From the NCBI GenBank assembly GCA_965222225.1, contig CBDCTK010000002.1, positions 1,920,001 through 1,984,000 of the forward strand: a stretch of DNA of 64,000 bases, in the 5' to 3' direction. Positions 2,375 to 58,441 of the stretch are shown here, piece by piece; the stretch's first letter is position 1, and each line of letters opens with the position of its first letter. The DNA is from Candidatus Poribacteria bacterium. Its GTDB lineage: Bacteria > Poribacteria > WGA-4E > JAJDTR01. A model generated the notes under the pieces. The model did not search any database, had not been told where the DNA came from, and saw nothing but the letters and a program-made list of their open reading frames with translations. Both the position numbers and the translations under genes were made by a program.

Positions 2375-2433
2375 GATCAAGCGACCGAATAGCGAGGAAT
2401 CAAAGGAACGGATAGTGACTGCGATAGAGATCC
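2375..2433 (+). mobile_element. GA-hairpin mini-element, double unit inside a GTAG REP
   Basis: gtaggttggg|atcaagcgaccgaatagcgagg aatcaa-ag-ga-ac-ggata-gt-ga-ct-gcgatag-agatcc|accgcccacc. Confidence 0.8.
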
Positions 2434-2643
2434 ACCGCCCACCAGTTTCTTTTTGCAGGGCGGAATCGGCAATCGTCAAATCGCCGATTTTCTCTCTTAC
2501 CGCCCATCAACCTCTGTAAACCTTAGCATGCAATCCACAATCATCAAATCAAGACAAAAACTTTGTGCTGCTTTTTCAAGCCCCGGAGGGGCGGAAGGTG
2601 TATAGTAACACCGAACCCCCCGTGCACCTAAGCCCCAGCGTGG

Positions 2644-2696
2644 AATCAAGCGACTGAATAGGGAGTGCGATAGCAAATCCCATGCGATAGAGATCC
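2644..2696 (+). mobile_element. GA-hairpin mini-element with extra right end
   Basis: aatcaa-gc-ga-ct-gaata-gg-ga-gt-gcgatag-caaatccc atgcgatag-agatcc. Confidence 0.8.
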
Positions 2697-2927
2697 GCCA
2701 CCCACCAGCCATTCAAGCCGTCAGAGCGGCGACAGGCGCATAGAACACCCAACGAACGTCCTCATCAATTCGTCGATTGCCCCTCATATCCTGCATGTCT
2801 ATAAAATAACGACATGCCCAAATTCCGCGCTCTAGCAGAGCGCAATGTCGATAGCATAAATATGCCCGATGCCCCGCACTCCGGAGGAGTGCAATGTCTT
2901 AAAACCCCGAGCGTGAAATCAAATACA
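2697..2927 (+). repeat. About 230-bp intergenic repeat, second copy at about 8804-9035
   Basis: Near-identical sequence ccaccagcc..caagccgtcagagcggcgac..gcactccggaggagtgc..gtgaaatcaaatacaa at both loci. Confidence 0.85.
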
Positions 2928-2984
2928 ATCAAGCGAGTGGACAATGAGCGATCAAGTGAGCGAATAGCGAATGCGATAGAGATC
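2927..2984 (+). mobile_element. GA-hairpin mini-element, double unit
   Basis: aatcaa-gc-ga-gt-ggaca-at-ga-gc gatcaa-gt-ga-gc-gaata-gc-ga-at-gcgatag-agatc. Confidence 0.8.
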
Positions 2985-3031
2985 TTTTCCCGATCGTTAC
3001 GAAACTTGGTGGGCGGGCATCAAGCGAACGA

Positions 3032-3080
3032 ATAGTCCGTAGGTTGGGTTGGGCACAGCGAAACCCAACCTACGGACTAT
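3032..3080. repeat. GTAG-type REP doublet / long inverted repeat
   Basis: atagtccgtaggttgggtt...aacccaacctacggactat. Confidence 0.8.
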
Positions 3081-3133
3081 TTGTCAACCCAAAGAACTTA
3101 GGCTTACCTCAAAGACTCCCTTCCACCCTTCCC

Positions 3134-3359
3134 ACTCGCGGCCGCTTTTACTGACCACTAGTCACTGTCTTCCCGCGCCGTCCCTCGAAACCTCATAGCC
3201 AACACACCAAAGCAATCGAATTAAACAAAAGCAACGTCGAAATAGCATTAATCTCCGGCGTAATCCCGAACTTCAGTTTCGAATAAATATGCACCGGCAA
3301 CGTAGTATAGCCCACCCCCGCCGTGAAGAACGAGATGACGAAATCATCAATCGACAACG
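3134..3359 (-). pseudogene. Partial duplicate of the potC 3' end and downstream flank
   Basis: Near-identical to about 3457-3687; similarity stops exactly where a mini-element begins (gacaacg|atcaa). Confidence 0.85.
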
Positions 3360-3418
3360 ATCAACCGACCGAATAGCGAGGGATCAAAGGAACGGATAGT
3401 GACTGCGATAGAAATCCC
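3359..3418 (+). mobile_element. GA-hairpin mini-element, double unit
   Basis: gatcaa-cc-ga-cc-gaata-gc-ga-gg gatcaa-ag-ga-ac-ggata-gt-ga-ct-gcgatag-aaatccc. Confidence 0.8.
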
Positions 3419-3490
3419 AGAGAGCACAGCGTAACCCAACTAAACCATCCTTCCTACTCACGGCTGCTTTTACTGACCACTAGCCACTGG

Positions 3491-4261
3491 TCACTGCCTT
3501 TCCGCCGTCCCTCGAAACCTCACAGCCAACACCACCAAAGCAATCGAATTAAACAAAAGCAACGTCGAAATAGCATTAATCTCCGGCGTAATCCCGAACT
3601 TCAATTTCGAGTAAATATGCACCGGCAACGTAGTATAGCCCACCCCCGCCGTGAAGAACGAGATGACGAAATCATCAATCGACAACGTAAACGCCAACAA
3701 AGCCCCGCCGACCACCCCCGGCGCAATCAGCGGCAAAGTGATTGCCCAAAACGTCCTCCACTCGTTGGCGCCCAAGTCCAACGCCGCCTCCTCCATAGAC
3801 CAATCAAACCCCTGCAACCTCGCCCGAACGATGATAGTGACATACGAGATATTGAACGCCACATGCGCAATGATAATCGAGACGATCCCCAGCGGAATGT
3901 GCGCTTGAGCGTAGAACATGAGCAGCGCGATCCCCATGACAATATCCGGAATGATAATCGGCAGAAAAATGACCCGCGTGAAGACACCCCGCAGCGGAAA
4001 TCGGTAACGTTCGATGCCGAGCGCCGCCATGGTACCGATGACCGTTGCGATGATGGTCGAGAACCCCGCCACGATTAAGCTATTCAGACACGCGCGCCAC
4101 AAATCCCGGTTCCCGAGCAGTTTGGCATACCAATCAAGCGTAAACCCCCGCCAAACCGCGGAATGCTCCGAAGCGTTGAACGAAAACACCACCAGCGCGA
4201 TAACCGGCGCATACAGAAATAGCAACACAAAGAACACATTCAGTTGCAATAATCGCTTCAT
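3491..4261 (-). CDS. potC: Spermidine/putrescine ABC transporter permease PotC-like
   Basis: 256 aa membrane protein with FLYAP, GFTLDWY, EEAALDLGA (EAA loop), FTLSIDDF and GITPEINA motifs. Confidence 0.85.
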   Translation of the reverse strand: MKRLLQLNVFFVLLFLYAPVIALVVFSFNASEHSAVWRGFTLDWYAKLLGNRDLWRACLNSLIVAGFSTIIATVIGTMAALGIERYRFPLRGVFTRVIFLPIIIPDIVMGIALLMFYAQAHIPLGIVSIIIAHVAFNISYVTIIVRARLQGFDWSMEEAALDLGANEWRTFWAITLPLIAPGVVGGALLAFTLSIDDFVISFFTAGVGYTTLPVHIYSKLKFGITPEINAISTLLLFNSIALVVLAVRFRGTAERQ

Positions 4262-4376
4262 AACACGCTACACCTAATCCGTAATGCGTGAAACGCAATC
4301 AAGCAACCCTGTAGGGCGCAATCTTCGCTCATCAACTCGCCGATTCCCCCTCTCACCACTGCCCACTAGCCACTGG

Positions 4377-5261
4377 TCACTGACCACTGCTTCTCTCCCC
4401 CTGCAACGACCGAAAATAAATCACCGTCCCAACCAACACCACCCCCATGAGCAGAAACGAAAGCGCCGAACCGAACGGCCAATCCCGCGCCGTCTTGAAC
4501 TGACGCGCAATCACATTGCCGATATAATTCACCTTCCCGCCGCCAAGCAAATCCGGCGTAATGAATGCGCCGACCGCCGGGATGAACACCAGCACCGATC
4601 CGGCGACAACGCCCGGAATGCTCAACGGCAACGTCACATTCAGAAACGCTCGCCACGGTTTCGCGCCCAGATCCTTTGCCGCGTCAATCAGTGCGCCGTC
4701 AATTTGCTCCAGAGACGCATACAGCGGCAAAATCATGAATGGCAGATACCCGTAGATGAGACCGATATGCACCGCAACCGGCGTATAGAGCAATTCCGGC
4801 GGCGTGATGTCGGGGAAGAGTGCAACCAGGAGCTTGTTCAAGACTCCCTCCGCCCGCAAAATCACAATCCACGCATACGTGCGAATCAAGAAATTTGACC
4901 AGAAGGGGAGCACCACAAGCAGCAGCAGGACGTTGCGCCAACGATACTGATACCGCGCAACGTAGTAAGCGAAGGGATAGCCCAGGAACAGGCAGATAAC
5001 CGTTGAAACCGCAGCCGTCAGGATCGAACGCCAAAGGATGCCCAGATAGAGCGAATCCAGCAGCCGACGGTAATTTCCTAGCGTAAGCGTCCAGTCAACG
5101 CCGCCGTATGTGCCGCGCTCGGCAAAACTGTAGATGAAAATCGACGCGATAGGGACGAGAAAAAAGAAGATGAGCCAAAACAGGGCGGGAAAAAGAAGGA
5201 TGAGAACGCGGCTATCGGAATGGTCACGGATGAATCGACTGAATCGATACCATGCTTTCAC
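4377..5261 (-). CDS. potB: Spermidine/putrescine ABC transporter permease PotB-like
   Basis: LPFWSNFLIRTYAW, YLPFMILPLY, DAAKDLGA and RDWPFGSA motifs. Start placed at GTG 5261 because the longer ORF begins inside a mini-element cluster. Confidence 0.85.
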   Translation of the reverse strand: MKAWYRFSRFIRDHSDSRVLILLFPALFWLIFFFLVPIASIFIYSFAERGTYGGVDWTLTLGNYRRLLDSLYLGILWRSILTAAVSTVICLFLGYPFAYYVARYQYRWRNVLLLLVVLPFWSNFLIRTYAWIVILRAEGVLNKLLVALFPDITPPELLYTPVAVHIGLIYGYLPFMILPLYASLEQIDGALIDAAKDLGAKPWRAFLNVTLPLSIPGVVAGSVLVFIPAVGAFITPDLLGGGKVNYIGNVIARQFKTARDWPFGSALSFLLMGVVLVGTVIYFRSLQGERSSGQ

Positions 5262-5264
5262 GGC

Positions 5265-5360
5265 GATCAAGGGAACGGATAGTGACCGATCAACTGAGTG
5301 GTCAACGAAGGCGATAGTAAATCTCAATAGCAAATCCCGTGCGATAGAGATCCTTTATAG
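5265..5360 (+). mobile_element. GA-hairpin mini-element cluster (nested)
   Basis: gatcaa-gg-ga-ac-ggata-gt-ga-cc gatcaa-ct-ga-gt-ggtca-ac-ga-ag-gcgatag followed by stacked right ends. Confidence 0.8.
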
Positions 5361-5446
5361 CCATTACAACTAAGAATTTTACATTTCTGTAGGAGCGATC
5401 CCCGAATCGCGACCTCCCGTCACGACCAAAACTCCCTCTTACAGCC

Positions 5447-5549
5447 CGTAGGTTGGGTTGAACGGAACACCCTGAAAAATCGAGACTATAGAATTACATC
5501 TAGAATATCCGTTTTACTTGATGTCTCGAAAATCCTAGTGAAACCCAAC
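5447..5549 (+). repeat. About 100-bp GTAGGTTGGGTTGA...GAAACCCAAC REP/REPIN-like family (also about 6056-6158, 7016-7116, 14233-14338; inverted about 33040-33134, 56618-56718)
   Basis: Shared ends cgtaggttgggttga / gaaacccaaca with a variable interior. Confidence 0.7.
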
Positions 5550-5579
5550 ACTATCCGCTGCTGCCGCCGTAGAGATCCC

Positions 5580-5660
5580 TCAACCGAATGGATAATGAGC
5601 GATCAACTGAACGCATAGTGAAGGCGATAGAAGATCCTGATAGCGTTCCCATAGAAATCC
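5580..5660 (+). mobile_element. GA-hairpin mini-element cluster (nested)
   Basis: tcaa-cc-ga-at-ggata-at-ga-gc g|atcaa-ct-ga-ac-gcata-gt-ga-ag-gcgatag-aagatcct|gatag-cgttccc|atag-aaatccc. Confidence 0.8.
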
Positions 5661-5773
5661 CCTCCGAATCGCGACCTCCCGTCACGACCGAAACTCCCTC
5701 TTACACTCGGTTTGTCGCAACAACCTTCAACCATCAACTCGCCCATCTCCATTGTTTTGCCAACCCCGCTCCG

Positions 5774-6019
5774 CTATTCGTCAAGAGCGTCGGCGACCTC
5801 CTCCGGCAGCGTCACCGTACTCGGATCAACATCAATCGGGAACTCCGTGCCATAAGCTTTAACCAAGTCGCCGAACGACGTATCATCAACCCGTTCAAGC
5901 TCCTGACCGGCGCGGCTGAGAACGACAACCTGACAGCTATCGCAACTCATCAAGTCCACATCCGATTGCTCAACCGGAAACTGCGTCAAAGGATTATTAC
6001 AATCCGGGCAAGGTAACAT
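5774..6019 (-). CDS. Small hypothetical protein with a putative Zn ribbon
   Basis: 81 aa, CPDC...CDSC, acidic tail, GGAAGGA upstream. Confidence 0.5.
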   Translation of the reverse strand: MLPCPDCNNPLTQFPVEQSDVDLMSCDSCQVVVLSRAGQELERVDDTSFGDLVKAYGTEFPIDVDPSTVTLPEEVADALDE

Positions 6020-6440
6020 ATCACGTATCCTTCCAAAACAATCTATATTTTAGTCCGTAGGTTGGGTTGAACGCAAACCGTCGAAAAAGCCGAAAAATCG
6101 AATTGCATGTGCGCCTCTCATTTTGCTTGGTATCACCACAATTCGAGTGAAACCCAACACATTGTGGGATTTGCAATTTGCCGGGTATTGCGTTTATTTA
6201 TTGATTCCACTCGGCTTGGATATGTCTATCCAAGCCGTATTTGCGCGTGTGCAGTGGCTGGCTCCATTTGACTCACATTTTCCCGGTTTGCAACGTTCGC
6301 GATAAGTGGCAACTTTAGCTAATTATACCATTTCGATTGAATAACAGTGCATATGAAGTTTTAATCATATCATTCTCTTGCCCCGCATCCGTAAGATTTG
6401 ATTAACGCTATTAATGCACTCAAAATATAGAGAAACGGTA

Positions 6441-6890
6441 TTAGTATACCTGCCCCCGTGGAAGTATGCTTAAAATGGTACACATCTGTTTGGTTTTGTC
6501 GACGTGATAAACCATTCTATAATGGCCAATTCTATATCTTTATTCGTTTTCCCTGTTTGTAAGTTTCTTGATATTAGGACCTCGGTATGGGTTATTTTCT
6601 ATATGTGAGACAGCAGTTTTAACTCGAATCTTCATGTTGTTATCCAACTTAAGTTCTGAAATATTCCTCAGCATCTTTGGTAAATCGCGAGTCAAACACC
6701 TTTGAATACGTCCTTGCTAGGGATGCACTCATCGTTTTCCATCTGTTTTCTTGCCCGATTCAAACTCGCAACAATATCAGGGTCATTATATAAATCCGAA
6801 TCTTCATCCACATAACCAGAAGATTGAGCTATGCTTTCAAACAACGGTTTAAGTTGCCTTTTTTCGATCTTTCTTCATTGGTTCACTATA
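6441..6890 (-). pseudogene. Degraded RelBE/ParDE-type toxin-antitoxin pair
   Basis: AT-rich. Manual translation gives an antitoxin-like ...DPDIVASLNRARKQMENDECIPSKDVFKGV* overlapping a RelE-like FTKDAEEYF/KLDNNMKIRV..IENNPYRGPNIKKL..*RYRIGHYRMVYHVD..CTILSILPRGQVY with a frameshift and a stop. Confidence 0.6.
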
Positions 6891-6935
6891 TATGGTGCTT
6901 TGGTATATAAACCCTTATTTTAGTCCGTAGGTTGG

Positions 6936-6972
6936 GATCAACCGACCGGATAGGGAGGGCGATAGAGATCCC
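6936..6972 (+). mobile_element. GA-hairpin mini-element, single unit
   Basis: gatcaa-cc-ga-cc-ggata-gg-ga-gg-gcgatag-agatccc after gtaggttgg. Confidence 0.85.
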
Positions 6973-7196
6973 TTTTTCCCTGAAAACTCGGTTTCTTCCC
7001 TGCAAAATCCAGTCCGTAGGTTGGGTTGAGCGGATATCCAAAAGAAATCGCGTCCAAAAAAAACTTCCGATGTTTCATGCTACCCGAAAACGCCGAAATT
7101 CTAGCGAAACCCAACACTTTACGCCTGTAGGATCTCTCTCCCAACCGCGCCCCTACTGCCGCACAAATCCCATGTTAACAAACCTCCGGGGACACC

Positions 7197-8402
7197 TCAA
7201 TCCGCCGCCGTCGCCACCTGAACCGCCGGCGCATCGACCCAATACTCATCATACCATACGTCATAATCGTCATACAACTCCGTCACCTCCGGCTTGTCCC
7301 CGCAAACCGGACAATTCGCATCCCGGCTGAGTTTCAACTCGCGAAATTGCATGCGCAGCGCATCATACAACACCAGCCGACCAATGAGAGGAATTCCGAT
7401 ACCCACCAATAACTTAATCGCCTCCGTTGCCATCATCACACCCACCACGCCCGGGAGCACGCCCAAGACACCCGCCTCGCTTCAGCTTGGAACCATGCCC
7501 GGAGGAGGAGGCGCCGAGTACAAGCAGCGATAGCATGGCCCCTCGTGAGCCTTGAGCACCGTCACCTGCCCCTCGAACTCCGAGATGCTGCCATGCACCA
7601 CCGTTTTGTTAGTCAATACCGCGGCATCGTTGACAAGATAGCGCGTCGGGAAATTGTCGCAGCCATCAACGATTAAGTCATATCCCTCAAAAATCTCAAG
7701 CGCATTCTCCGACTTCAAGCGCGTCTGATGAGGCACCACCTTGACATCCGGATTCAACGACTTGATTGTCGTTGTCGCCGATTGCACCTTCGGCGTGCCA
7801 ATCGCCTCCGTGCGATGCGCAATCTGTCGTTGCAAATTACTGATTTCGACAAGATCCGAGTCCAGCACACCGAGCGTCCCGACCCCAGCCGCCGCCAAGT
7901 ACACCGCCGCGGGCGACCCCAGTCCACCGGCGCCGAGCAGCAACACCTTCGATTCAAGTAGCTTCGCCTGCCCCGTCTCACCGATTTGACGCAGCATGAA
8001 GTGACGGCTATACCGATCCAACTGCTCGTGCGTCAACGATTTGTCCTGCGTCGTCGGATAGCCCGCCGTCAACCAACCCCTATATCCGCCCGCCATTGAG
8101 ATCGTGTCCGTGTAACCCATATCCTTCAGGGACTTCGCGGCGAGCAGAGAGCGTACTCCGCCTGCGCAATAAAGAATAATCTTCTGATCCGCGTCAGTCA
8201 CATAATCGTCAATCGAAAGCTCAAGCATACCTCGCGTCACATGAACCGCGCCCGGAATATACCCCGCCCGACGCTCATCGTCATCTCGAACATCAAGCAG
8301 CACAAAATCCCCGCCCCGATCCTGCTCGGCTTTCACCTCGCCAACCGACGCCTCCGGAATCTCCCTTCTCACCTCTTCAATAATCTCTGCGGACGACTTC
8401 AT
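7197..8402 (-). CDS. moeB: Rhodanese + ThiF/MoeB adenylyltransferase (MoeB/MoeZ-like) with an in-frame TGA at the conserved Cys (candidate Sec)
   Basis: Rhodanese YCAGGVRS, then RYSRH, GAGGLG, SNLQRQ, DGCDNF, CYRC, PPPPGMVPS-TGA-SEAGVLGVLPG and CPVCG. The two ORF-track pieces are in the same frame. Confidence 0.85.
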
Positions 8403-8498
8403 AAAATTCACCCCCCTCAAAACGTATGGCTCCACCCGAGATCTCGGTTACAAATCCGTCCTCGAACGCCGTTTGACACCGTCTTTCCAACCAAAGCC

Positions 8499-8602: not shown

Positions 8603-8639
8603 GATTAAGCGAATGAATAATGAGCGCGATAGAAATCCT
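8603..8639 (+). mobile_element. GA-hairpin mini-element interrupting REP GTAGGGTGCGCACTGCGCACC
   Basis: gtagggtgcgcactgcg|attaa-gc-ga-at-gaata-at-ga-gc-gcgatag-aaatcct|accagc; empty REP at 11382-11405. Confidence 0.85.
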
Positions 8640-8664
8640 ACCAGCATCTAAAGCCCCAGAGTGG

Positions 8665-8701
8665 GATCAAGGAAGCGAATAGCGACTGCGATAGGGATCC
8701 C
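8665..8701 (+). mobile_element. GA-hairpin mini-element, single unit
   Basis: gatcaa-gg-aa-gc-gaata-gc-ga-ct-gcgatag-ggatccc within an aagcccc..acagg palindromic repeat. Confidence 0.8.
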
Positions 8702-9034
8702 ACAGGTAGTAGCAGCCAACAATGAAAAAACTTCCGGCAAATGACTAAAAATGGCTGTGCCACCTATTATTCAACCAGGCTTTAAGGAGGGCGATAGAGA
8801 TCCACCGCCCACCAGCCTTTCAAGCCGTCAGAGCGGCGACAGTCGTATAGAACACCCATCGAACGTCCTCATCAATTCGTCGATTGTCCTTCTTATCCTG
8901 CATGTCTATAAAATAACGACATACCCAAATTCCGCGCTCTAGCAGAGCGCAATGTCGATAGCATAAATATGCCCGATGCCCCGCACTCCGGAGGAGTGCA
9001 ATGTCTTAAAACCCCCAGCGTGAAATCAAATACA

Positions 9035-9126
9035 AACAAACGAGCGAATAGCGGTCAACCGACTGATTAGCGAGGGATCAAGGAAATGGATAATGACCGC
9101 GATAGCAAATCCCGATAGAAATCCCG
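9035..9126 (+). mobile_element. GA-hairpin mini-element cluster (three left parts, nested)
   Basis: ...gtcaa-cc-ga-ct-gatta-gc-ga-gg g|atcaa-gg-aa-at-ggata-at-ga-cc-gcgatag-caaatccc|gatag-aaatccc. Confidence 0.75.
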
Positions 9127-11292: not shown

Positions 11293-11293
11293 A

Positions 11294-11554
11294 ATCCTGT
11301 TTGAAAATTCATTTCGGGTAGAACTTTTGCCCTGAAACCGAGTATTTTCTTGAAAACTCCGTTTCTTTCTTGCGCAAACCCGTAGGGTGCGCACTGCGCA
11401 CCAGCTTTTGTAAGCCCAGAGTGGGATCAAGGGAGCGAATAGTGAGTGCGATAGAAATCCTGACAGGTGTATAGCAGGCGACCACAAAAGCATGAAAAAG
11501 CCGCGCCCACAGTGACCGAAATTGCTTTGCCACCTATTATTCAAACAAGCTCTA
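11294..11554. mobile_element. MITE-like element (related to 50912-51046) carrying internal REP and mini-element insertions
   Basis: Ends cctgtttgaaaa ... ttcaaacaagctct; internal segments ttttgccct and gctttgccaccta shared with the 50.9-kb copy. Confidence 0.55.
11425..11461 (+). mobile_element. GA-hairpin mini-element, single unit
   Basis: gatcaa-gg-ga-gc-gaata-gt-ga-gt-gcgatag-aaatcct|gacaggtgtatag. Confidence 0.8.
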
Positions 11555-11678: not shown

Positions 11679-11751
11679 GATCAAGCGAGTGAATATCGAG
11701 TGATCAACTGAACGAATAGTGAAGGCGATAGAAGATCCTGATAGCAAATCC
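11679..11751 (+). mobile_element. GA-hairpin mini-element, nested pair
   Basis: gatcaa-gc-ga-gt-gaata-tc-ga-gt g|atcaa-ct-ga-ac-gaata-gt-ga-ag-gcgatag-aagatcct|gatag-caaatcc. Confidence 0.8.
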
Positions 11752-11764
11752 GCGATTCAGACAA

Positions 11765-13122: not shown

Positions 13123-13217
13123 GATCAACCGAGCGGATAGATCAAGCGACTGAATAAGGAGTGCGATAGAAAATCCCGTGCGATCAAGCGACTGAACAAG
13201 GAGCGCGATAGAAATCC
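13123..13217 (+). mobile_element. GA-hairpin mini-element cluster (three units)
   Basis: gatcaa-cc-ga-gc-ggata g|atcaa-gc-ga-ct-gaata-ag-ga-gt-gcgatag-aaaatccc gtgc gatcaa-gc-ga-ct-gaaca-ag-ga-gc-gcgatag-aaatcc. Confidence 0.8.
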
Positions 13218-13373
13218 ACCACCCTTCCCGTTTTCTCGTCTTCCACCCTTCCATCCTTCCCCATTAGCCATTGGTCACTCGCCACTAATCACTGCTTTCT
13301 CCCTTCCCGTCTTCTCGTTTTCCCGTTTTCTGCTTTCCCCCTTCCGCCGCGCCGCCACCGCTGACATTGCCAA

Positions 13374-14480: not shown

Positions 14481-14615
14481 GATCAAGCGAATGGATAATG
14501 AGTGCGATAGTAAATCCCGATAGCAATCTTTCTTGCCCCGACTGAGTCCGAACCGGTGCGATACAGATCCCTTAATCCGATCAAGTGAGTGATTAGCGAA
14601 TGCGATAGAGATCCC
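14481..14615 (+). mobile_element. Two GA-hairpin mini-elements (14481-14528, 14579-14615)
   Basis: gatcaa-gc-ga-at-ggata-at-ga-gt-gcgatag-taaatccc; gatcaa-gt-ga-gt-gatta-gc-ga-at-gcgatag-agatccc. Confidence 0.8.
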
Positions 14616-14701
14616 ATTCAAACAATCACCCATCCTTCCACTCTCACCACTAACCACTGGTCACTAGCCACTGCTTCTCTTCCCTCCCTTCCATTCTTCC
14701 A

Positions 14702-17636: not shown

Positions 17637-17673
17637 GATCAAGCGACTGAACAAGGAGTGCGATAGAGATCCT
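17637..17673 (+). mobile_element. GA-hairpin mini-element, single unit
   Basis: gtaggttgg-gatcaa-gc-ga-ct-gaaca-ag-ga-gt-gcgatag-agatcct. Confidence 0.85.
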
Positions 17674-17912
17674 CACTCGCCCGACAATGGTAGGCGGGGC
17701 ATCTTGCCCCGCCGGATTGTGGCTAGCCCATAGGTTGGGAACAAGCGACTTTCTTCCGCGTAATCTGCGATTCAGACAATCACCCATCTTTCCCCCTTCC
17801 CATCCTCTCGTTTTCCCTTTTTCCGGTCTTCCGCCCTTCCCTCCTTCCAATCTTCCCCTCCTCCCGATTTCTCCCGTTCCCGTTTCTGCTTTACCGCCCT
17901 TCCAACCTTCCA

Positions 17913-20434: not shown

Positions 20435-20507
20435 GATCAAGCGAGTGGATAGTGAGTAAGATTTTCTATCGCCTTCCCTATTCGGTTAGTTGATCGATAG
20501 AGATCCT
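20435..20507. mobile_element. GA-hairpin mini-element with a second copy inserted in inverted orientation
   Basis: gatcaa-gc-ga-gt-ggata-gt-ga-gt|[revcomp of atcaa-ct-aa-cc-gaata-gg-ga-ag-gcgatag-aaaatctt]|cgatag-agatcct. Confidence 0.8.
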
Positions 20508-24437: not shown

Positions 24438-24672
24438 GACCAACTGACTGATTAAGGAGGGCGATAGAAAGTCCCGATAGAAATCCCATGAAGCACTGCG
24501 AAAGCCAACTCCTCTGTAGGAGCGACCTCCTGGTCGCGACAAGACCGAGCAATCAAACGGGATCAAACGAGTGGATAGCGAGCGATCAACTGAGTGAATA
24601 ACGAAGGATCAAAGTAGCGGATAGCGACTGCGATAGCTAATCCCATACTAGATCCCGTGCGATAGAAATCCT
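24438..24672 (+). mobile_element. GA-hairpin mini-element clusters (24438-24487, 24551-24672) flanking an intact REP GTAGGAGCGACCTCCTGGTCGCGAC
   Basis: Up to four stacked left parts followed by three right ends. Confidence 0.75.
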
Positions 24673-26239: not shown

Positions 26240-26307
26240 AATCAAGCGACTGGATAAGGATCAAATGAGTGAACAACGAATGCGATAGTTAATCCTTATA
26301 GAGATCC
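26240..26307 (+). mobile_element. GA-hairpin mini-element, nested pair
   Basis: aatcaa-gc-ga-ct-ggata-ag gatcaa-at-ga-gt-gaaca-ac-ga-at-gcgatag-ttaatcct tatag-agatcc. Confidence 0.8.
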
Positions 26308-26834
26308 AACGAATCACAGTTCAGACAATGTCAAATACTGACACCCAACACTTACCTTATTCTCTTAGCGAAAATTCCGCTTATGAACCCGTGCATATAG
26401 CATATATTGTATTATTATAATAAATGCCATACTATATATTGATGTTTATGTGAACGACTAACAGCGATGGTGATTAACACTCGTCAATCGAAAATCTCGC
26501 TCTGCCGGTTTTCCCGTTTGCTAGTCCTCCAATCTTCTGCCCTTCCCCATTAACCACTGGTAACTGCTTCTCTTACATCCTTCCCCACTAGCCACTGGCA
26601 ACTGGTCACTGACCACTGTTTCTCGTATTCCACCCTTCCAATCCCATTTATTGAGACGACTTGTTGCGCCGACCTAACACGCTATATGTCATTGAAAATC
26701 ATGCGCCCAAAATTAGGTTCTGTTGACATTTCATCGTCACCAGATTATTGAGGGAGGCATAAATAGGTGCGTTCATATAATCAAATTGGGTAAAGCGACC
26801 GAGTTTGTGTTAAATGAGGGGGGCAAGAAGAATA

Positions 26835-26864
26835 CTATCGCATTCGCCATTCGCTCATTTGATC
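26835..26864 (-). mobile_element. GA-hairpin mini-element
   Basis: Minus strand gtaggg-gatcaa-at-ga-gc-gaatg-gc-ga-at-gcgatag. Confidence 0.75.
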
Positions 26865-27253: not shown

Positions 27254-27360
27254 GATCAAAGGAATGAATAATGACTGATCAAACGAGTGGATAACGATCA
27301 AGTGACCGGATAGGGAACGCGATAGCAAATCCCGTGCGATAGAAATCCCATAGAGATCCC
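27254..27360 (+). mobile_element. Triple nested GA-hairpin mini-element
   Basis: Three left parts then three right ends in reverse order; the XX/X'X' pairs match when un-nested. Confidence 0.85.
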
Positions 27361-28451: not shown

Positions 28452-28607
28452 AATCAACTGAGATCGAGGGAGTGAATAACGACCGCGATAGCGCTCCCAT
28501 CGTGACCGACAAGCCAACTACTGTAGGAGCGACCTCCCGGTCGCGACCAATAAAGCGAGCGAATAGCGATCAAGCGACTGGTCACTGAGCGATCAAAGAA
28601 CAGATAG
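28452..28607 (+). mobile_element. GA-hairpin mini-element clusters (28452-28500, 28549-28607) among REPs
   Basis: gatcga-gg-ga-gt-gaata-ac-ga-cc-gcgatag-cgctccc and others. Confidence 0.7.
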
Positions 28608-28753: not shown

Positions 28754-28826
28754 GATCAAGCGAATGAATAATGAGTGATCAAAGCAATGAATAATGACTG
28801 CGATAGAAAATCCTGATAGAAATCCT
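28754..28826 (+). mobile_element. Nested GA-hairpin pair interrupting REP GTAGGGTGCGCACCGCG(C)ACC
   Basis: ccgcg|atcaa-gc-ga-at-gaata-at-ga-gt g|atcaa-ag-ca-at-gaata-at-ga-ct-gcgatag-aaaatcct|gatag-aaatcct|accagcc. Confidence 0.85.
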
Positions 28827-31180: not shown

Positions 31181-31328
31181 GTGCGTTGTCCTTAGTTCGA
31201 ATGTCAGGAGCTAAAGTTCCAGTCTACAGGAGCGATGGAAAATAGAGTTCGGGTCTCGGTTCCTGGCGATGATGGGCAATAAGAGAAGAACTCGGCGATT
31301 CGATAACGGATTTCTCTCGCAGGTCTTG

Positions 31329-31358
31329 CTATCGCCCTCGCTATTCACTCGGTTGATC
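31329..31358 (-). mobile_element. GA-hairpin mini-element at the breakpoint of a gene fragment
   Basis: Minus strand gatcaa-cc-ga-gt-gaata-gc-ga-gg-gcgatag. Confidence 0.8.
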
Positions 31359-31511: not shown

Positions 31512-31774
31512 GATCAAAGGAACGGATAGTGACTGCGATAGAGTTCCCCTGCCCACCATTTCTTTTAGGATACGATTGTAGATTGTCAAATCCCCGATTT
31601 TCCCTCTTACTGGAATTAGACAAACGAATAATGAATGCTATAGACCTCTTAGAGAGTTCCCACTAGCACCGTAGGCGGGGCATCTTGCCCCGCCCACAGC
31701 TAACCTGTAGGAGCGAGTTCCACTCGCGACTCTGTAGGATTAAACGAGCGAATAGCGAGTGCGATGGAGATCCC
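31512..31774 (+). mobile_element. GA-hairpin mini-elements (31512-31548 in REP GTAGGGTGGGCACTGCCCACC; degenerate 31614-31648; 31738-31774)
   Basis: gatcaa-ag-ga-ac-ggata-gt-ga-ct-gcgatag-agttccc; gattaa-ac-ga-gc-gaata-gc-ga-gt-gcgatgg-agatccc. Confidence 0.75.
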
Positions 31775-32024
31775 GCTGCCCCACATTGGAAAGACTTCAT
31801 TACCCTAAGTTGCCATCTTTGTAGCACGATCTGTTAGATTGTGCATGTGATACGCAAACTGACACATTGCGCGACTACATCTACACAATTAATCGTCTAT
31901 GTTCAATAAAAATTGATGGGGATTGTCTATATTCTTCTAAGTAACAACTTGGGTCAATTAACAAAATTCGCCATCCGTGTAGCACAATCTGTTAGATTGT
32001 GCTTGCCATGCGCAAACTGACGGC

Positions 32025-36628: not shown

Positions 36629-36678
36629 ATGATAATCGCAGATCCTATAGGCGTAATGGAATACTTTAAAAGGCTGGG

Positions 36679-36714
36679 AGGATTTCTATCGCACTTGTTA
36701 TTCACTCGCTTGAT
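36679..36714 (-). mobile_element. GA-hairpin mini-element
   Basis: Minus strand gatcaa-gc-ga-gt-gaata-ac-aa-gt-gcgatag-aaatcct. Confidence 0.8.
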
Positions 36715-36788
36715 CGCAATAAGAGGGAAATCGGCGATTCGCCGATCGCCGATCGCAGCCTACAGAATGGGGGAACGTGAAGATTATA

Positions 36789-38752: not shown

Positions 38753-38789
38753 GATTAAGCGAGTGGATAACGAGTGCGATAGCGATCCT
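38753..38789 (+). mobile_element. GA-hairpin mini-element interrupting REP GTAGGGTGCGCATTGCG(C)ACC
   Basis: ttgcg|attaa-gc-ga-gt-ggata-ac-ga-gt-gcgatag-cgatcct|ataccagcc. Confidence 0.85.
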
Positions 38790-38842
38790 ATACCAGCCTT
38801 TGAATGTGCCACTCATCACTAGCCACTCGCCACTGTCGTTCC

Positions 38843-45871: not shown

Positions 45872-46004
45872 TGAGCTATAATCACGGGAGGGCACAGGGG
45901 CCGTCCCCAACAATCAGTCACGGCCTCAAGAGGAATCTCTATGATGAGCCGAGTAGACAACGAGCAGAAGATTCTATCGCAGCCACTATCCATTCCTTTA
46001 ATCG

Positions 46005-47048: not shown

Positions 47049-47192
47049 AATCGATAGAAAATCCTACTCCCAATTCGGTCGCTTGAGAGGATCTCTATCG
47101 CACTCCCTATGCAGTCGCTTGATCCCCTACGTTTGTATTTCGAGAGGGCTTGTGATACAATGTCACATCACGGGAGACGAGGATACGTAAAG

Positions 47193-49308: not shown

Positions 49309-49413
49309 GTCTCTATCGCACGGGAATTTCTATCTCAGTCGCTGTTCGCTTCTTCCATCGTTATCCACTCGTTTGAATGATTTCTATCGCCCTCGCTATT
49401 CACTCAGTTAATC
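49309..49413 (-). mobile_element. GA-hairpin mini-element cluster
   Basis: Minus strand gattaa-ct-ga-gt-gaata-gc-ga-gg-gcgatag-aaatc plus further partial units. Confidence 0.7.
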
Positions 49414-49581: not shown

Positions 49582-49807
49582 GATCGCTTGAGGGCACTTC
49601 TATTGGGGTTAGCTATCGCCTTCGCTGTCCGCTCAGTTGATCTGTCCCTATCGGTTCCATTGATTGGTCATTTGCCTTGTTGCGAACAACAGAAACGTGA
49701 TATAATTCTCGAAATTCATCGTCAAACACTCAAAAACAACACAATTAGTAAATATCTGGATTCGTACACCGGGAAAACTCTCCGCGCTAGAATGGGAGGC
49801 AATCGAA

Positions 49808-49978: not shown

Positions 49979-50110
49979 ATGTGAACTTCTTCTCAAGTTG
50001 AAATCTTCGATCATTGAGCGATGCGATTCATCGCGAGCGTGGATGACGAACAGGATTGTCTATCGCAGTCGCTGTTCGCTCCCTTGATCGTTGTTTACTC
50101 CCTAAATCCC

Positions 50111-50390: not shown

Positions 50391-50911
50391 TTGTAAGCCG
50401 CCGCCTATTTTCGAGGATGAGTAGAGGGATGGGAACTGTCTACCCTTAAAGCCTCCACTGCTTGCACTATCGGTTAGTATAGCACATGATACGGAAGCGT
50501 GCAAATCGGAGGAGGTACGCTTGGCAGGGCAATTGCACTCGACCATCAACCGATTGTGTTGGCGTTTTCCGACTGAGTGCCGTTCAGCGCGGAGCAGAAT
50601 TTATTGGACGGCAAATGCCAACATCTATAGCCATCAACCAAGTGGACAACGAACAGGATATTCTATCGCGACCTGGAGATCGAGGGATTTCTATCGCGCT
50701 CCTTATCCAGTCGCTTGATGATTAAAGGATTTCACGGATTAGGTTTCGCTAAGTGATATATCTCGTAGAGTCGGGCTAGAAGCCCGACCTACAGAAGTTG
50801 TAGACCGAGTGTCTTGTGTTGTATGGGCGGGTCCGAAACCCGCCCAACCAAGGTTCAGGAGCAAGTTTCTTGCGCCAATCCCATAAGTTAATTACTTAGC
50901 GAGAGCACCAC

Positions 50912-51150: not shown

Positions 51151-51222
51151 AGATCTCTATCGCACTCACTGTGGGATCTTCTATCGCTTTCGTTATCCAC
51201 TCAGTTGATCGTTCGCTTGATC
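51151..51222 (-). mobile_element. GA-hairpin mini-element nested in the loop of another, inside REP GTAGGAG...GGTCGCGAC
   Basis: Minus strand gatcaa-gc-ga-ac-g|atcaa-ct-ga-gt-ggata-ac-ga-aa-gcgatag-aagatccc|aca-gt-ga-gt-gcgatag-agatct. Confidence 0.85.
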
Positions 51223-53411: not shown

Positions 53412-54210
53412 AGATCTCTATGGGAGCTCTACGGGATTTCTATCGCGCTCCTTATCCAGTCGCTTGATCTATTCGCTCCCTTGATCGTTGAGCCCAACCT
53501 ACGAATATGACTGGGCAAAGCCGCATGTTTGCACCGTGCAGGGCAACGGGAATGAGATCCCTGACCTATTCCGTGCACCGGGGGCACGAAACCCGTCATC
53601 GGGAGCGGTATGATTGGGTTTTCTACTGGCATGGATGTTGCGCTGTGGCGAAGTATACACGACCATCCATTGGGCTCACGCAGGTTGCCCCGATTCCTAG
53701 GAAAAGATAGAGGGTGAGGTAATACGCTATCGCCCGGGATTCGCTATGGGAACGCTATCGCCTTCGTTAATCACTCAGTTGATCACTCGCTAATCGCTCG
53801 CTTGATTCTAATCAGTCGGTTGATCGATAGAGATCCCAAGGCGATAGTTTGTCCTACTCGTTATCCAGTCGCTTGATTTCCTCTGGAGCGCGGAGGAGAA
53901 GCGTAAGCAGATGGAGGGATTCCTATCGAGGTCCTTCCCTTGATTCCACCTTACGACGTCGGAGTGCACATGAAGAGTAACCGTGCCTGCAATGCGCAAA
54001 CTGACAGTTTGCGCTACAAAAACGGCGGTGGATGTCTAGAATCCTGTGAGTCGTAGGCGGTAAGAGAAGGGATTGGTGATTCGACGAATGCCGGTTGTTC
54101 GCTGCACAACGGATATTTTTCGTGGAAGCAATGAGGTCACGACCTGGAGGGGGAGCTCTATAGGAACTCTATCGCACTCACTATTCACTCGTTTGATCGT
54201 TCCTTTGATC
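53412..54210 (-). mobile_element. GA-hairpin mini-element clusters (53412-53486, 53727-53878 with mixed orientation, 54152-54210)
   Basis: For example, minus strand aatcaa-gc-ga-gc-gatta-gc-ga-gt gatcaa-ct-ga-gt-gatta-ac-ga-ag-gcgatag-cgttccc. Confidence 0.75.
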
Positions 54211-55176: not shown

Positions 55177-55224
55177 TACGCACCGCGTGCTTGAAACTTC
55201 AGCTCATTAACCAAAAAGGAGGAA

Positions 55225-56205
55225 ATGATGTCATTCAAAGCTAGACGCTTGTCTGCAGCAGCGCTTGTCGTCTCCCTGTTTATCCAGATGCAATTTGTGG
55301 CAAACGGTTACGCCTCTCGCAGAACCAAGATCGCCTTCACCTCTTGGCGTGAAGGGAATGGGGACATTTATGTCATGGATGGTGACGGGAGTAACCAGAG
55401 AAGAGTAACGGTGAATCCGGCAAGGGACGAATATCCGGCATGGTCTCCCGACGGCAAAAAGATTGCCTTTGTTTCCAATAGAAACAACGTAAACAAAGAT
55501 CACAAGCAAATCTGGGTGATCGACGCCGACGGGAAGAACCCGATTAGACTGACGGACGGGTTGGTGGACTCTTATCCGGATTGGTCGCCAGACGGCACGA
55601 AAATTGTGTACGACGCCCATCTTCATCCAGAGGAACATCATGTAGCCCCCGCCGGGATTACTGTAATGGATGCGGATGGGAACAACAAGAGACTACTTAC
55701 GCGTGAAGGCGCACATCCGACCTGGTCGCCCGATAGCAAAAGGATAGCATTTATCTCCGCAGTTGATGTCATCAGTCATGTCTTCGTGATGGATGCCGAC
55801 GGACGAAATCGGATGCAGTTAACGCATGACTTTGTGCGAAAACGTTTGCCATCATGGTCACACGACGGGAGGCGCATCGCATATGTGGGCGATAACGTGA
55901 TTTGGGTGGTGGATAGCGACGGAGAGAATCCGAGGCAACTCACGTGGCATGTTACGGAAGAACACCCTACATGGTCACCGGACAGTGGATCCCTCGCGTT
56001 TACCTCGCGTGGAAGGGATCCTGGAATTGTTGGGATTTACACGGTGGATGTAACTAACGGCGCTGTCGACGCTTTGCCACGTGATCCCGACGTCCTGAAT
56101 TACGATCCGGATTGGCTATATCCCGGAGGACTCTCCGTTTCGCCGGAGGGCAGCCGGATTACAATTTGGGGCAGGCTGAAGAATACTGTGCTCAGCCTCC
56201 GGTGA
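55225..56205 (+). CDS. Secreted TolB-like (PD40) protein 4
   Basis: Same architecture; tail VSPEGSRITIWGRLK. Confidence 0.85.
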   Translation: MMSFKARRLSAAALVVSLFIQMQFVANGYASRRTKIAFTSWREGNGDIYVMDGDGSNQRRVTVNPARDEYPAWSPDGKKIAFVSNRNNVNKDHKQIWVIDADGKNPIRLTDGLVDSYPDWSPDGTKIVYDAHLHPEEHHVAPAGITVMDADGNNKRLLTREGAHPTWSPDSKRIAFISAVDVISHVFVMDADGRNRMQLTHDFVRKRLPSWSHDGRRIAYVGDNVIWVVDSDGENPRQLTWHVTEEHPTWSPDSGSLAFTSRGRDPGIVGIYTVDVTNGAVDALPRDPDVLNYDPDWLYPGGLSVSPEGSRITIWGRLKNTVLSLR

Positions 56206-56314
56206 GGAGTGCGCTTGGTGGACGGTAAGAGGAGGGATAGGGGATTCGTCGGTTGCCGGTTGATCGCTGCATAACGGACATGTTTCGTGCAAATAACGAG
56301 GTCGCGACCTGGGG

Positions 56315-56586
56315 GGATCTCTATCGCACTCATTATCCATTCGTTTGATCGCTCCTACAAGTGATGGCGGACGGGGGAGTTCTATCGATCAACGAAGGCG
56401 ATAGGAATTCTTACTCACTGTTTATTCTTTTGAGCCCACCCTACGATTGAACAGAAATATTTGGTCAATCTTGAACTTTGGAGTGTATCTGAAATGAATC
56501 CGTGCTTGCGATGCGCAAACTAACAGATCAAGCGAGCGAATAGCGAGTAGGACAAACTATCGCCCTCCCTATCCAGTCGGTTGATC
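56315..56586. mobile_element. GA-hairpin mini-elements (56315-56350 minus strand, in a REP; 56376-56423; head-to-head pair 56526-56586)
   Basis: gtaggagc-gatcaa-ac-ga-at-ggata-at-ga-gt-gcgatag-agatcc; gatcaa-gc-ga-gc-gaata-gc-ga-gt followed by an inverted unit. Confidence 0.8.
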
Positions 56587-56850
56587 GTTTCTTTCCCGGT
56601 CAGTGGCAGGGGTTCCGTTGGGTTTCACTATGCTTCACAAGGATTGAGCGCCATAGAGCGTCAGAACTTGGGTGGAACGCCGCGCGTTCCATTGGTTGGT
56701 GCCGTTCAACCCAACCAACGAACTTCGGAGTGCACATGAAGAGTAACCGTGCCTGCAATGCGCAAACTAACAGTTTGCGGTACAAAAATCGGTGGCGGAT
56801 GTCTAGAATCTTGTAATTAGCAACTTGGGTTATCTATTACTGAGGAGGAA

Positions 56851-57700
56851 ATGATGTTATTTAAAGCTAGACGATTCTTGATTGCAGCGCTTGTCGTCTC
56901 CCTGCTGATCCAGATGCAGCTTGCGGAAAACGGTTACGCCTCTCGCAGAACCAAGATTGCCTTCGCCTCTAGCAGGGACGGGAATTATGAAATTTATGTC
57001 ATGGACGGCGACGGGAGAAACCAGAGAAGATTAACGGTGCATCCAACGATTGATCAGTATCCGACATGGTCGCCAGACGGGAAAAAGATTGCATTTGTTT
57101 CCAATCGAAACGGAGGTTATATTCAAATCTGGGTGATTGACGCCGATGGGGGAGAACCCGGTTAGACTGACGGATGGTGTGTGGGACCGAAATCCGGACT
57201 GGTCTCCCGACGGGACGAAGATCGCGTACGACTTCCTTCTCAATCCGTGGGACAATGATAGATGGAACCGTACCATCTACGTGATGGACTCGGATGGAAA
57301 AAACAATCGGCAACTGATTAAGAAACCGGGGTGGGACACAAGTCCGTCCTAGTCGCCCGACGGGAGCCGCATCGCGTATTACACCAACGATCATATTGGC
57401 GTGATGGATAGCAACGGAGAGAATCCAAGACGACTCACGAAGAATGGATGGCATGAGCATCCGACATGGTCGCCGGACGGCGGCAGCATTGCATTTCATT
57501 CTTGGGACGAGGACGGACTTGAGTTTACGATTGTCACAGTAGGCGCGGAGGGTGGCGCCGTCAACCCAATCGGCCAGGTTCAGCGCCAACATGATTTTGA
57601 ACCGGATTGGCTTTATCCCGGAGAGCTCTCGGTTTCGCCGGAGGGCAACCGCATCACAATTTGGGGCAGGCTCAAGAGAGTTGCGTCCAGCCTTCGGTGA
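56851..57700 (+). pseudogene. TolB-like (PD40) protein 5, disrupted
   Basis: Frameshift near 57150 and TGG->TAG at 57350; same N-terminus and TIWGRLK tail as its paralogs. Confidence 0.8.
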
Positions 57701-58129
57701 GGTGTACGCAGTTGGTGGGCGGTTAGAGACGCATTTAGTGGTTCGATGGTTGCCAGTTTCACGGGACGTGAAAGATATGCTCTGTGGATTTAAAGCTAAG
57801 TGGTTTAATCTCTGAAGATAGAGGGCCCGAGGTTTGCGTATCCTAGTCTACTGACAGAGAGACGCGCACAGACGGCAACCGCACATGGCACTCCGCTGGA
57901 TCGCAAGACGGTCATAGAGCCACGTTCTATCAACATGACGCTCCGCTGGAGCGTGACTGTCGTATTCCTATGGCTAGCTGTTGGTCGGGACTTTCTCTCC
58001 AAGGGAGAACGAGTGAGAAATTAATGATGGACAATCAATTCCAACATACATGAAATACTTTGCGCAAAAACCCTTTAGTGGTTTACTCGATAAGCGTTTA
58101 ATGCGAATATGGAGGTCGCGATTCGTAGA

Positions 58130-58441
58130 GGGATATACTATCGCCCGCCTTAATCAGTCGGTTGATCGCTCCGACAGCGAGAGGTCGGATGATTGCACCG
58201 GACAGAGAGTTGGGCGGGGCAAGGGGATCTCTATCGATCAACTGACCGAATAGGGAAGGCGATAGATTATCTTTTAACCGTCTGGTCTTTCTGGTTGACC
58301 ATTGAAAAAGTCTCGAGCGGTTTCTGGTGCGATATAGCCTGTCACTCGTCGCTCTTTCAAAGGCTGGTGCGCAGTGCACACCCTACAGACTTTAGTGTTG
58401 TACAGAGTCGAGCTATCGCACTCACTTCCATTCGCTTGATC
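58130..58441. mobile_element. GA-hairpin mini-elements (58130-58167 minus, 58224-58271 plus/nested, 58413-58441 minus)
   Basis: For example gatcaa-ct-ga-cc-gaata-gg-ga-ag-gcgatag. Confidence 0.75.

Follow-up and report, generated by a model that had tools for sequence, protein, structure and literature searches.

A window of 64,000 nt from a Candidatus Poribacteria bacterium (G000:C2:1920001-1984000, on one of the two contigs of the 5.70-Mb source genome, G000) carries dozens of copies of an intergenic repeat of ~37 nt, in which four variable base pairs covary around a nearly invariant tandem G.A mismatch. Here, the fold, copy number, taxonomic distribution, turnover, nesting, strand specificity and replication-strand bias of this element are described. 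The element probably, though by no means securely, constitutes a new family of non-autonomous single-strand hairpin elements that resemble repetitive extragenic palindromes (REPs) and are moved in trans by an HUH/Y1 enzyme of the kind of the REP-associated tyrosine transposases (RAYTs).

Anatomy, fold and copy number

Copies were searched for with the pattern ATCAA-NN-GA-N9-GA-NN-GCGATAG at ≤2 mismatches. In the window, this yielded 46 matches compared to 0.04 expected, a number reached in 0 of 100 shuffles. Two of them (35674-35702, +; 46931-46959, -) are spurious, as each falls within a copy of an IS701-family transposase gene (35591-36610, -; 46023-47042, +; NF049921, 399 bits), one string of which mimics the pattern at two mismatches. 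The other 44 copies form alignment A1, and a covariance model built from them recovered all 44 with 42-60 bits. It added two degenerate full copies (Table 1) as well as 23 weaker or partial, mostly hairpin-only, matches at E ≤ 1, giving 69 matches in total. An earlier, sequence-only reading of this DNA had estimated about 45-50 loci and about 60 units, in agreement with these numbers. Genome-wide, 1091 matches were obtained, of which 722 were exact, 234 had a single mismatch and 135 had two. As 24 of these, including the two in the window, are the one identical string of the multicopy transposase gene, ~1067 true copies remain.

The unit can be written as G-ATC-AA-[XX-GA-YY-GRATA-Y'Y'-GA-X'X']-GC-GAT-AG-ARATCC. 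In the position profile of all genomic matches (G-ATCAA-XX-GA-YY-G-R-A-T-A-Y'Y'-GA-X'X'-GCGATAG-A-R-A-T-C-C-C), it spans position 0 (G, 87%) to about position 36, and the composition is flat outside. From base to apex, the hairpin has a foot of 3 bp (ATC/GAT), the AA/GC bulge and an upper stem in which the tandem G.A/A.G mismatch is enclosed by two variable base pairs on either side; the loop is GRATA, and the GCGATAG-ARATCC tail lies on the 3' side of the hairpin.

Among the 44 window copies, standard pairs occupied 99.0% of 308 cells compared to 76.0% in 500 shuffles, none of which reached the observed share, and 95 cells were doubly changed where 20.0 were expected. When the partners were slid by 1-3 columns, the paired share fell to 23-48%. 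Genome-wide, 92.4% of 4364 cells were paired (57.2% after shuffling), and all four variable pairs were intact in 876 of the 1091 matches. Because wobble cells of the type G.T/T.G (473) far outnumber those of the type A.C/C.A (106), the selected fold is placed on the GATCAA..GCGATAG strand. The two GA dinucleotides are kept in 1017 (93%) and 1038 (95%) of the matches, and A4A5 and G23C24, which form the bulge, are 95-98% conserved. The foot hardly varies, its variation being five C-to-T changes that give T.G, and is therefore inaccessible to a covariation test. The sequence-only reading had listed example stems and had claimed covariation as well as a fold on this strand. The stems are present as given, and the counts above bear out the rest, with shape conserved over sequence on the G-rich strand.

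Folding energies were calculated for the ~1067 copies. With RNA parameters, the mean was -5.07 kcal/mol, compared to -4.61 for shuffles and -3.22 for the complement, and the proposed hairpin was the minimum-energy fold in 632/1067 copies. With DNA parameters, the mean was -1.53 kcal/mol, compared to -2.01 for shuffles, and the hairpin was the minimum-energy fold in 56/1067. This marginal predicted stability suggests a shape that a protein reads and stabilizes, rather than a self-stable structure.

The stems are diverse: 265 stem combinations and 628 distinct 29-mers occur over the genomic matches. The 876 fully paired copies display 97 pair-state combinations, where 142 would be expected under independent pairs, and linkage between stem pairs is weak (0.04-0.31 bits). 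From ~108 possible combinations of the common pair states, 97 are realized.

Hairpin and tail also behave as modules. While 816 of the 1091 matches comprise one hairpin and one tail, 157 have two or three hairpins and 123 have two to four tails; the latter number is an undercount because right flanks often open with further ATAG-type tails. Under a strict hairpin definition, which gave 0 matches on the reversed genome, 777 modules were found, followed by a tail (662), another hairpin (77) or something else (38). In many of these 38, what follows is an inverted copy that sits precisely at the junction of hairpin and tail. Loose module patterns were discarded, as they produced 8978 tail and 1092 hairpin matches on the reversed genome, in favor of anchored and strict parsers that gave 0 in this control.

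No Rfam 15 family matched any copy in the whole window, either at gathering scores or at E ≤ 10. A search at E ≤ 10 restricted to the stretch 2300-3500 and three loci likewise matched no copy and returned only weak matches, of microRNA type, on an unrelated palindrome (3028-3084). The comparison with Rfam proposed along with the sequence-only reading thus turned up no known family. The name 'Poribacteria-1', an RNA motif from earlier screens with which the element may be identical, is absent from the main text of PMC5737381; literature searches on Poribacteria repeats found no description of the repeat, though the supplements of PMC5737381 may hold one.

The stretch 2001-12000 was found in 20 public runs from 8 studies, 6 of the runs being RNA libraries. 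Four runs were compared, all as contigs, in which RNA starts, ends and strand are not visible. Element-bearing parts are covered by contigs of other studies, e.g., X15 at 2618-2979 and X19 at 5459-5630, and this recurrence in independent studies rules out the library artifact that the sequence-only reading had considered. Short-read contigs typically stop at element copies. Apparent joints at which precisely one unit is missing (5288 to 5327; 8603 to 8640) were not used, since their sides comprise only 20-24 letters and may stem from other copies. Over 5675-8346, the summed depth of metatranscriptome contigs was several-fold above that over the genes at 3671-5006 and 9349-10684; the DNA run was flat at ~30-40, and contig depth is a poor measure of expression.

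Placement, turnover and insertion sites

By home-made, crude gene calls, according to which ~79% of the genome is coding, 1012 of the 1091 matches are intergenic. Their density per kb is 0.88 in co-directional, 0.95 in convergent and 0.72 in divergent intergenic regions, and relative to co-directional flanking genes 402 copies are in sense and 323 in antisense orientation. Orientation tracks the replication-type skew rather than gene direction. On raw 50-kb GC skew with the elements masked, 743 of 1088 copies were located on the C-rich strand; after correction for gene direction, 673 of 950 (71%) were located on the negative-skew strand, as were 74%, 74%, 69% and 60% of the members of the GTAG-REP families of this genome. 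A gene-strand bias is absent from the genome (51% on the G-rich strand), and dnaA is found at 2.61 Mb, where the corrected skew switches from minus to plus. The skew flips sign many times along contig C2, and many rearrangements or assembly joins may be the cause. The copies occur on both strands at irregular spacing (42 nt to several kb) and are strongly clustered, ranging from 0 to 64 per 100 kb. Neighbors share the same orientation in 59 of 65 pairs within 60 nt and in 130 of 159 pairs within 60-120 nt.

The genomes of relatives were examined by searching them and retrieving individual stretches. The element is carried by each of the 10 genomes of the source genus (459-1094 exact matches) and by each of the 4 genomes of a second genus, in another family (142-166 copies). 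Among the other 162 of the 176 genomes searched in the phylum, one has 17 copies, six have 1-5 and 155 have none; the reversed pattern gave 0 in every genome. A covariance-model search, with the top 44 candidates scored per genome, revealed the same picture (17 of 151 genomes). This patchy spread suggests transfer between co-resident symbionts or repeated loss.

For turnover, six syntenic regions fetched from other species of the genus were compared with the source genome, making seven species. The genes are 77-92% identical, and the intergenic regions vary from ~90 to 1190 nt in length and differ in repeat content. After the first gene, 4, 2, 1, 0, 0, 2 and 0 copies are found across the seven species. 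No orthologous copy was seen in two intergenic regions of the seven species, nor in a third compared between G000 and G001 only. In G001, an inverted copy is nested inside a copy that is uninterrupted in G002, and in the window one identical core occurs in three different contexts (2398, 3382 and 31512). The sequence-only reading had proposed a mobile non-autonomous element; turnover, nesting and identical cores in unrelated flanks fit this proposal, mobility being deduced from them rather than observed.

Other repeats of these regions behave differently. In the REP family GTAGTAGGCATAC..GTATGCCGTAAC (window 2313-2340, 12985-13012), the copy at 12985 is, unlike the element, conserved in place between G000 and G001; this family also flanks a RAYT-like gene near G000:C2:3727400-3727970. 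Heptamer-like repeat runs (..CCACTGG / TCACTGN / CCACTAG..) with adjoining T/C-rich tracts stand beside genes (window ~3150-3180, 3470-3500 and 13270-13300), at the same place in several species (syntenic regions of G001, G002, G003 and G007).

To characterize targets, the flanks of each copy were compared with uninterrupted paralogous sequences of the same genome, which are not true pre-insertion sites. Copies were found at the apex or in an arm of other hairpin repeats, such as GTAGGGTGC-GCA-CTGCGCACC, GTAGGGAATAAC-GATC-GTTATTCCCTAC and GCCCC-N4-GGGGCGACAGGTG; in the pentaloop of other element copies; in inverted orientation in other copies, where the GC side of the AA/GC bulge is the site; and in tails. 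Target duplication is absent, and the first G of the element is usually common with the target. A duplicated GATC was dropped as an explanation because most empty sites lack it. Among 105 filled copies with a paralogous empty site, 0, 1, 2 and 3 nt were replaced in 23, 22, 30 and 10 cases, respectively; as the empty sites are paralogous, these small losses may not be real. Flanks are complementary over ≥6 bp in 4.3% of the copies compared to 1.7% in the control, so that most copies reside in ordinary intergenic DNA and general insertion into palindromes was rejected.

A GTAG is present ≤14 nt upstream of 270 of the 1091 copies (background, 3.5%), mostly because the element sits inside another REP. 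Its commonest host is the GTAG-type family GTAGGGTG(C/G)GCAYYGC(C/G)CACC, which has 157 intact copies genome-wide and occurs in the window at 8551-8575, at 8588-8603 with 8641-8650 and at 31499-31511 with 31551-31562. Of the element copies inside REPs of this type, 91, with 60 distinct cores, share the GTAG strand, compared to a single copy on the opposite strand. Another repeat family, GCCCC-N4-GGGGCGACAGGTG(TATAG), lies at 2579-2640 and at 8650-8664 with 8704-8712. REPs have also been inserted into the element's own hairpin (window 3020-3084). The REP inserted there belongs to a further family, the GTAGGTTGGGTT..AACCCAACCTAC palindromes (window 3028-3084, 5449-5552), which flanks a 41-48%-identical RAYT clade in G015, G027, G003 and G002.

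Table 1. Full copies of the element in the window. Bits are covariance-model scores; pattern, found by the pattern search at ≤2 mismatches; CM only, found by the covariance model only.
Positions	Strand	Search	Bits	Remarks
2398..2436	+	pattern	50.4	degenerate hairpin module 2375-2397 before
2644..2682	+	pattern	52.6	second tail module to ~2697; inside GCCCC..GGGGC-type REP
2950..2988	+	pattern	55.3	hairpin module 2927-2949 before
3382..3420	+	pattern	58.0	hairpin module 3360-3381 before; two-hairpin unit as at 2375
5288..5326	+	pattern	50.4	hairpin module 5265-5287 before; extra tails to ~5353
5601..5639	+	pattern	52.1	
6936..6974	+	pattern	59.1	
8603..8641	+	pattern	55.0	in 3' arm of GTAGGGTGCGCACTGCGCACC REP
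8665..8703	+	pattern	51.0	inside GCCCC..GGGGCGACAGGTG REP
9076..9114	+	pattern	53.0	
11425..11463	+	pattern	49.5	
11702..11740	+	pattern	55.9	
13140..13178	+	pattern	59.8	
13182..13220	+	pattern	53.9	42 nt after copy at 13140
14481..14519	+	pattern	57.0	
14579..14617	+	pattern	54.9	
17637..17675	+	pattern	55.5	
20457..20495	-	pattern	54.2	
24438..24476	+	pattern	47.7	
24607..24645	+	pattern	50.6	partial hairpin modules 24562-24606
26259..26297	+	pattern	53.3	
26826..26864	-	pattern	48.0	
27296..27334	+	pattern	56.6	partial module 27255-27279
28462..28500	+	pattern	48.6	
28777..28815	+	pattern	54.1	partial module 28760-28776
31320..31358	-	pattern	52.5	
31512..31550	+	pattern	56.7	at apex of GTAGGGTGG..CCCACC REP; core identical to 2398, 3382
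31738..31776	+	pattern	50.3	
36677..36715	-	pattern	54.8	
38753..38791	+	pattern	53.4	
45965..46003	-	pattern	42.3	
47086..47124	-	pattern	53.9	
49321..49359	-	CM only	28.6	degenerate
49375..49413	-	pattern	48.7	
49604..49642	-	pattern	53.0	
50051..50089	-	pattern	52.9	
50682..50720	-	pattern	54.0	
51172..51210	-	pattern	52.5	
53431..53469	-	pattern	57.6	
53746..53784	-	pattern	53.1	partial modules 53785-53801, 53822-53839, 53914-53945
54160..54198	-	pattern	52.3	
56312..56350	-	pattern	58.8	partial modules 56373-56413
56548..56586	-	pattern	49.9	
58129..58167	-	pattern	48.9	
58236..58274	+	pattern	54.3	
58404..58441	-	CM only	32.2	degenerate; last unit of the range covered by the sequence-only reading

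Known hairpin systems and the search for the enzyme

The systems closest to the element are REPs and bacterial interspersed mosaic elements (BIMEs) together with their RAYTs (REPtrons), with which it shares a size of 30-40 nt, intergenic location, hundreds of copies, a strand-specific imperfect hairpin and the lack of target duplication. REPs of E. coli are characterized, in the part of PMC8266576 drawn on here, as imperfect palindromes with a 5' GTAG and, in the stem, a conserved AA-GC bulge that TnpA(REP) requires for its activity; the AA/GC bulge of the element (A4A5 facing G23C24) appears to be the same feature, judged by sequence resemblance. Furthermore, GTAG REPs of the source genome have the same replication-strand bias, and an E. 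coli-like RAYT is present in the genus. According to the relevant part of PMC6006769, the cognate repeats of certain TnpA(Y1) classes lack GT[AG]G and are weakly structured. Based on the likeness of the bulge and the existence of such GTAG-less repeats, the element is read as a new REP variant; membership in a REPtron is not claimed. It differs from the REP/RAYT system in its foot of only 3 bp, the invariant tandem G.A in the upper stem and the conserved 3' tail, and no RAYT gene examined is flanked by it as its own repeat. The sequence-only reading had placed the element too far from known kinds, as it shares the bulge with E. coli REPs, and the strand bias and strand-specific association with GTAG REPs.

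In accordance with the sequence-only reading, no cognate enzyme gene lies in the window. The source genome has five Y1 matches over the Pfam cut-off, and a sixth, truncated Y1-like gene was found by tblastn. The presence of these HUH/Y1 enzymes, one lineage of which is closely homologous to E. coli TnpA(REP), speaks for movement by an enzyme of this class. Flanks were read at five of the six loci (four of the five over the cut-off plus the truncated E1 gene) and at homologues in relatives. Three RAYT-like genes are flanked by different GTAG REPs, and one of the three contains in-frame REPs in other species. The Y1 gene at C2:2564343 has no flanking repeats in the source genome.

Two loci with inverted element copies on both sides were considered and rejected. 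The IS200-type Y1 gene G000:C2:3080255-3080728 is flanked by its own inverted repeats, GCCCC-N4-GGGGCGACAGGTG; at 21 other loci, homologues likewise have an inverted repeat other than the element, and the element copy downstream of the gene is an insertion into that repeat. Homologues of this gene in other genera carry lineage-specific variants in which the hairpin is kept. Similarly, for the truncated RAYT at C2:3560268, the full-length homologues examined in six genomes carry other REPs.

The truncated gene C2:1545573-1545947 has full-length relatives in G009, G002, G005 and G001, which are close to E. coli TnpA(REP) (4ER8, E 1.1e-33; NF047646, 184-201 bits) and are flanked in these four genomes by the GTAGGGTG REP family. 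Element copies were found near this E. coli-like RAYT in G009, G000 and G001, and near a 48%-identical relative in G015. It is kept as a weak candidate for the cognate enzyme. RAYT-like genes with a GTAGGGGACG..CGTCCC REP in frame between the HUH and Tyr motifs were also encountered: L160 (G001), L161 (G003), L162 (G006) and L165 (G009). An in-frame REP is a feature given for TnpA(REP) subclass 2.4 in the cited part of PMC6006769.

Movement by an HUH/Y1 enzyme could proceed as follows. A strand-specific nuclease-ligase of the RAYT/TnpA(REP) or IS200 kind would act in trans on the element folded as single-stranded DNA, recognizing the hairpin shape together with the invariant letters. It would either cut the element out or copy it at the replication fork, and the element would then be joined into exposed single-stranded DNA without target duplication. 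It would preferentially land directly behind a G, in the loop or bulge of another hairpin (a GTAG-type REP or one of its own copies), or otherwise in any intergenic DNA. The stem pairs would covary because only variants that keep the fold propagate. Recognition by shape, as the sequence-only reading had put it, is in line with a fold conserved over sequence; its notion of an 'enzymatically written' insert is without direct support.

Several observations weigh against movement by an HUH/Y1 enzyme. No cognate gene was found: every repeat-flanked Y1/RAYT-like gene read in the source genome has its own, different repeat family, and 36 further Y1 loci from relatives, scanned only for the element, gave no consistent flanking pair. 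The copies near the E. coli-like RAYT are mostly passengers in its own GTAGGGTG REPs, and the G002 homologue is without any. Of the 10 genomes of the source genus, only 5 have the close clade of this RAYT, and a distant clade occurs in 34 genomes, most of them without the element; the closed genomes G012 and G021 of the second genus, with 142-166 copies, lack such a RAYT at E ≤ 1e-25. The folding strand (71%) is the leading-strand template under the usual GC-skew reading, and it is the lagging-strand template on which IS608-type transposition relies; the expected polarity could, however, be inverted by survivor bias after excision. Additionally, 97 stem combinations at weak linkage represent more diversity than simple recent copying predicts. 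The folding molecule may be DNA or RNA: the DNA energy model does not favor the hairpin, and RNA-library contigs cover some copies. Finally, a GT[AG]G tetranucleotide 0-2 nt 5' of the hairpin foot is a criterion for REPs, and the REPIN, a pair of REPs in inverted orientation, is the replicating unit, both as stated in the cited part of PMC6006769. The element mostly lacks such a tetranucleotide (GTAG ends 0-2 nt before 78 of 1091 copies), and its close neighbors are mostly direct, head to tail, and not inverted doublets.

Small dispersed repeats (SDRs) of heterocyst-forming cyanobacteria are reportedly often nested in each other, and to our knowledge an invariant tandem G.A with an AA/GC bulge has not been described for them. 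Compared by brief description only, the element differs from them in taxon and sequence; they may be its nearest analogue in size and nesting. They measure ~20-27 nt and are thought to be mobile, without a known enzyme, in the parts of PMC3116915 and PMC2884548 cited here. IS200/IS605 elements resemble it in the folded irregular single strand that is recognized, insertion without duplication next to a short target and orientation tied to the fork (relevant part of PMC6006769), and an IS200-type gene is present in the source genome. The element has a single hairpin, not separate ones for the left and right ends, its strand bias is opposite to that of an active strand on the lagging-strand template (usual skew reading), and the IS200-type gene has a repeat of its own.

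Integron attC boxes are presumably absent from the element, which is much shorter than attC sites and lies between conserved core genes in all orientations rather than at cassette boundaries. Its conserved flanks and variable paired center are reminiscent of attC, as would be the recognition of folded single-stranded DNA (cited part of PMC8266576). It is not a CRISPR array, as copies differ, spacing is irregular and both strands are used between genes.

Alternative explanations and significance

It is possible, though unlikely, that the element is mobile or 'written' by other means than an HUH/Y1 enzyme: single-stranded copies that arise through a reverse transcriptase or during lagging-strand synthesis and are built into the nascent lagging strand, template switching between hairpins at the fork, or an unrelated hairpin-loop recombinase. 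No RAYT is consistently flanked by the element or tracks it across genomes, and in 71% the folding strand corresponds to the nascent lagging-strand sequence, the polarity that would be expected for an incorporated G-strand oligonucleotide. Fuzzy junctions, with 0-3 nt replaced in 85 of 105 cases, fit microhomology or template switching as well as cut-and-join, but the fuzziness may be apparent only, paralogous empty sites being imperfect proxies. Tandem repetition of hairpin and tail modules and the realization of nearly all common pair-state combinations point in the same direction. However, the same strand bias is seen in this genome for GTAG-type REPs, which RAYTs of other bacteria are established to act on, so that the bias of the element needs no special mechanism, and the 91-to-1 same-strand association with REPs fits a shared single-strand DNA machinery.

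A bolder version is doubtful still. The 23-nt G.A hairpin module and the 15-nt tail would be the smallest self-standing bacterial mobile unit, put into single-stranded hairpin loops by an enzyme outside the recognizable RAYTs (either an HUH enzyme of a new class or a system producing single-stranded copies and ligating them at the lagging strand), with stems diversified as pairs. If so, the element would be a natural 'shape-addressed' DNA writer.

It is improbable that the element is a structured RNA with a function in the cell, either a protein-binding hairpin for transcript stability or regulation or a small RNA, and maybe 'Poribacteria-1', its spread being secondary. In RNA, tandem G.A pairs are often recognized by proteins, covariation is clean with G.U-type wobbles tolerated on one strand only, and the hairpin is the minimum-energy fold far more often with RNA than with DNA parameters. 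Metatranscriptome contigs do cover some element-bearing stretches, but they cannot show strand or ends, and such libraries can contain DNA. The near-random orientation toward genes, the similar density in all kinds of intergenic region and an orientation that follows replication-type skew instead of gene direction argue against an RNA role. So do the lack of Rfam matches, even on short stretches at E ≤ 10, and the fact that no copy is conserved in place between species, though neighboring genes are 80-90% identical.

Least probable, and only remotely so, is that the copies have by now largely become domesticated DNA sites, folded or duplex, that serve a nucleoid, gyrase or replication protein, as has been suggested for E. 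coli BIMEs, and are retained through selection on chromosome organization and not through continued mobility: very high copy number, 19 well-conserved fixed letters (722/1091 exact), regional clustering, orientation tied to replication direction and persistence where no E. coli-like RAYT was found (G012, G021, G006-G008) would suit such a role, yet rapid turnover without orthologous copies argues against locus-specific function, a duplex binding site needs no covariation, we know of no binding protein, and domestication is compatible with a mobile origin rather than exclusive of it.

The element helps to explain the repeat-rich intergenic DNA of these sponge symbionts. It breaks short-read Poribacteria assemblies and could serve as a lineage marker for the two genera. 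If it is indeed moved as a folded single strand by an HUH/Y1 enzyme, it would be an unusually clean natural experiment in shape-based recognition of single-stranded nucleic acid: in ~1000 copies per genome, the fixed letters, the tandem G.A and the AA/GC bulge are held while four base pairs have explored nearly every allowed combination, in a unit small enough for direct synthesis and probing. It could then widen the substrate range known for HUH/Y1 enzymes and show how miniature elements colonize one another's hairpin loops.

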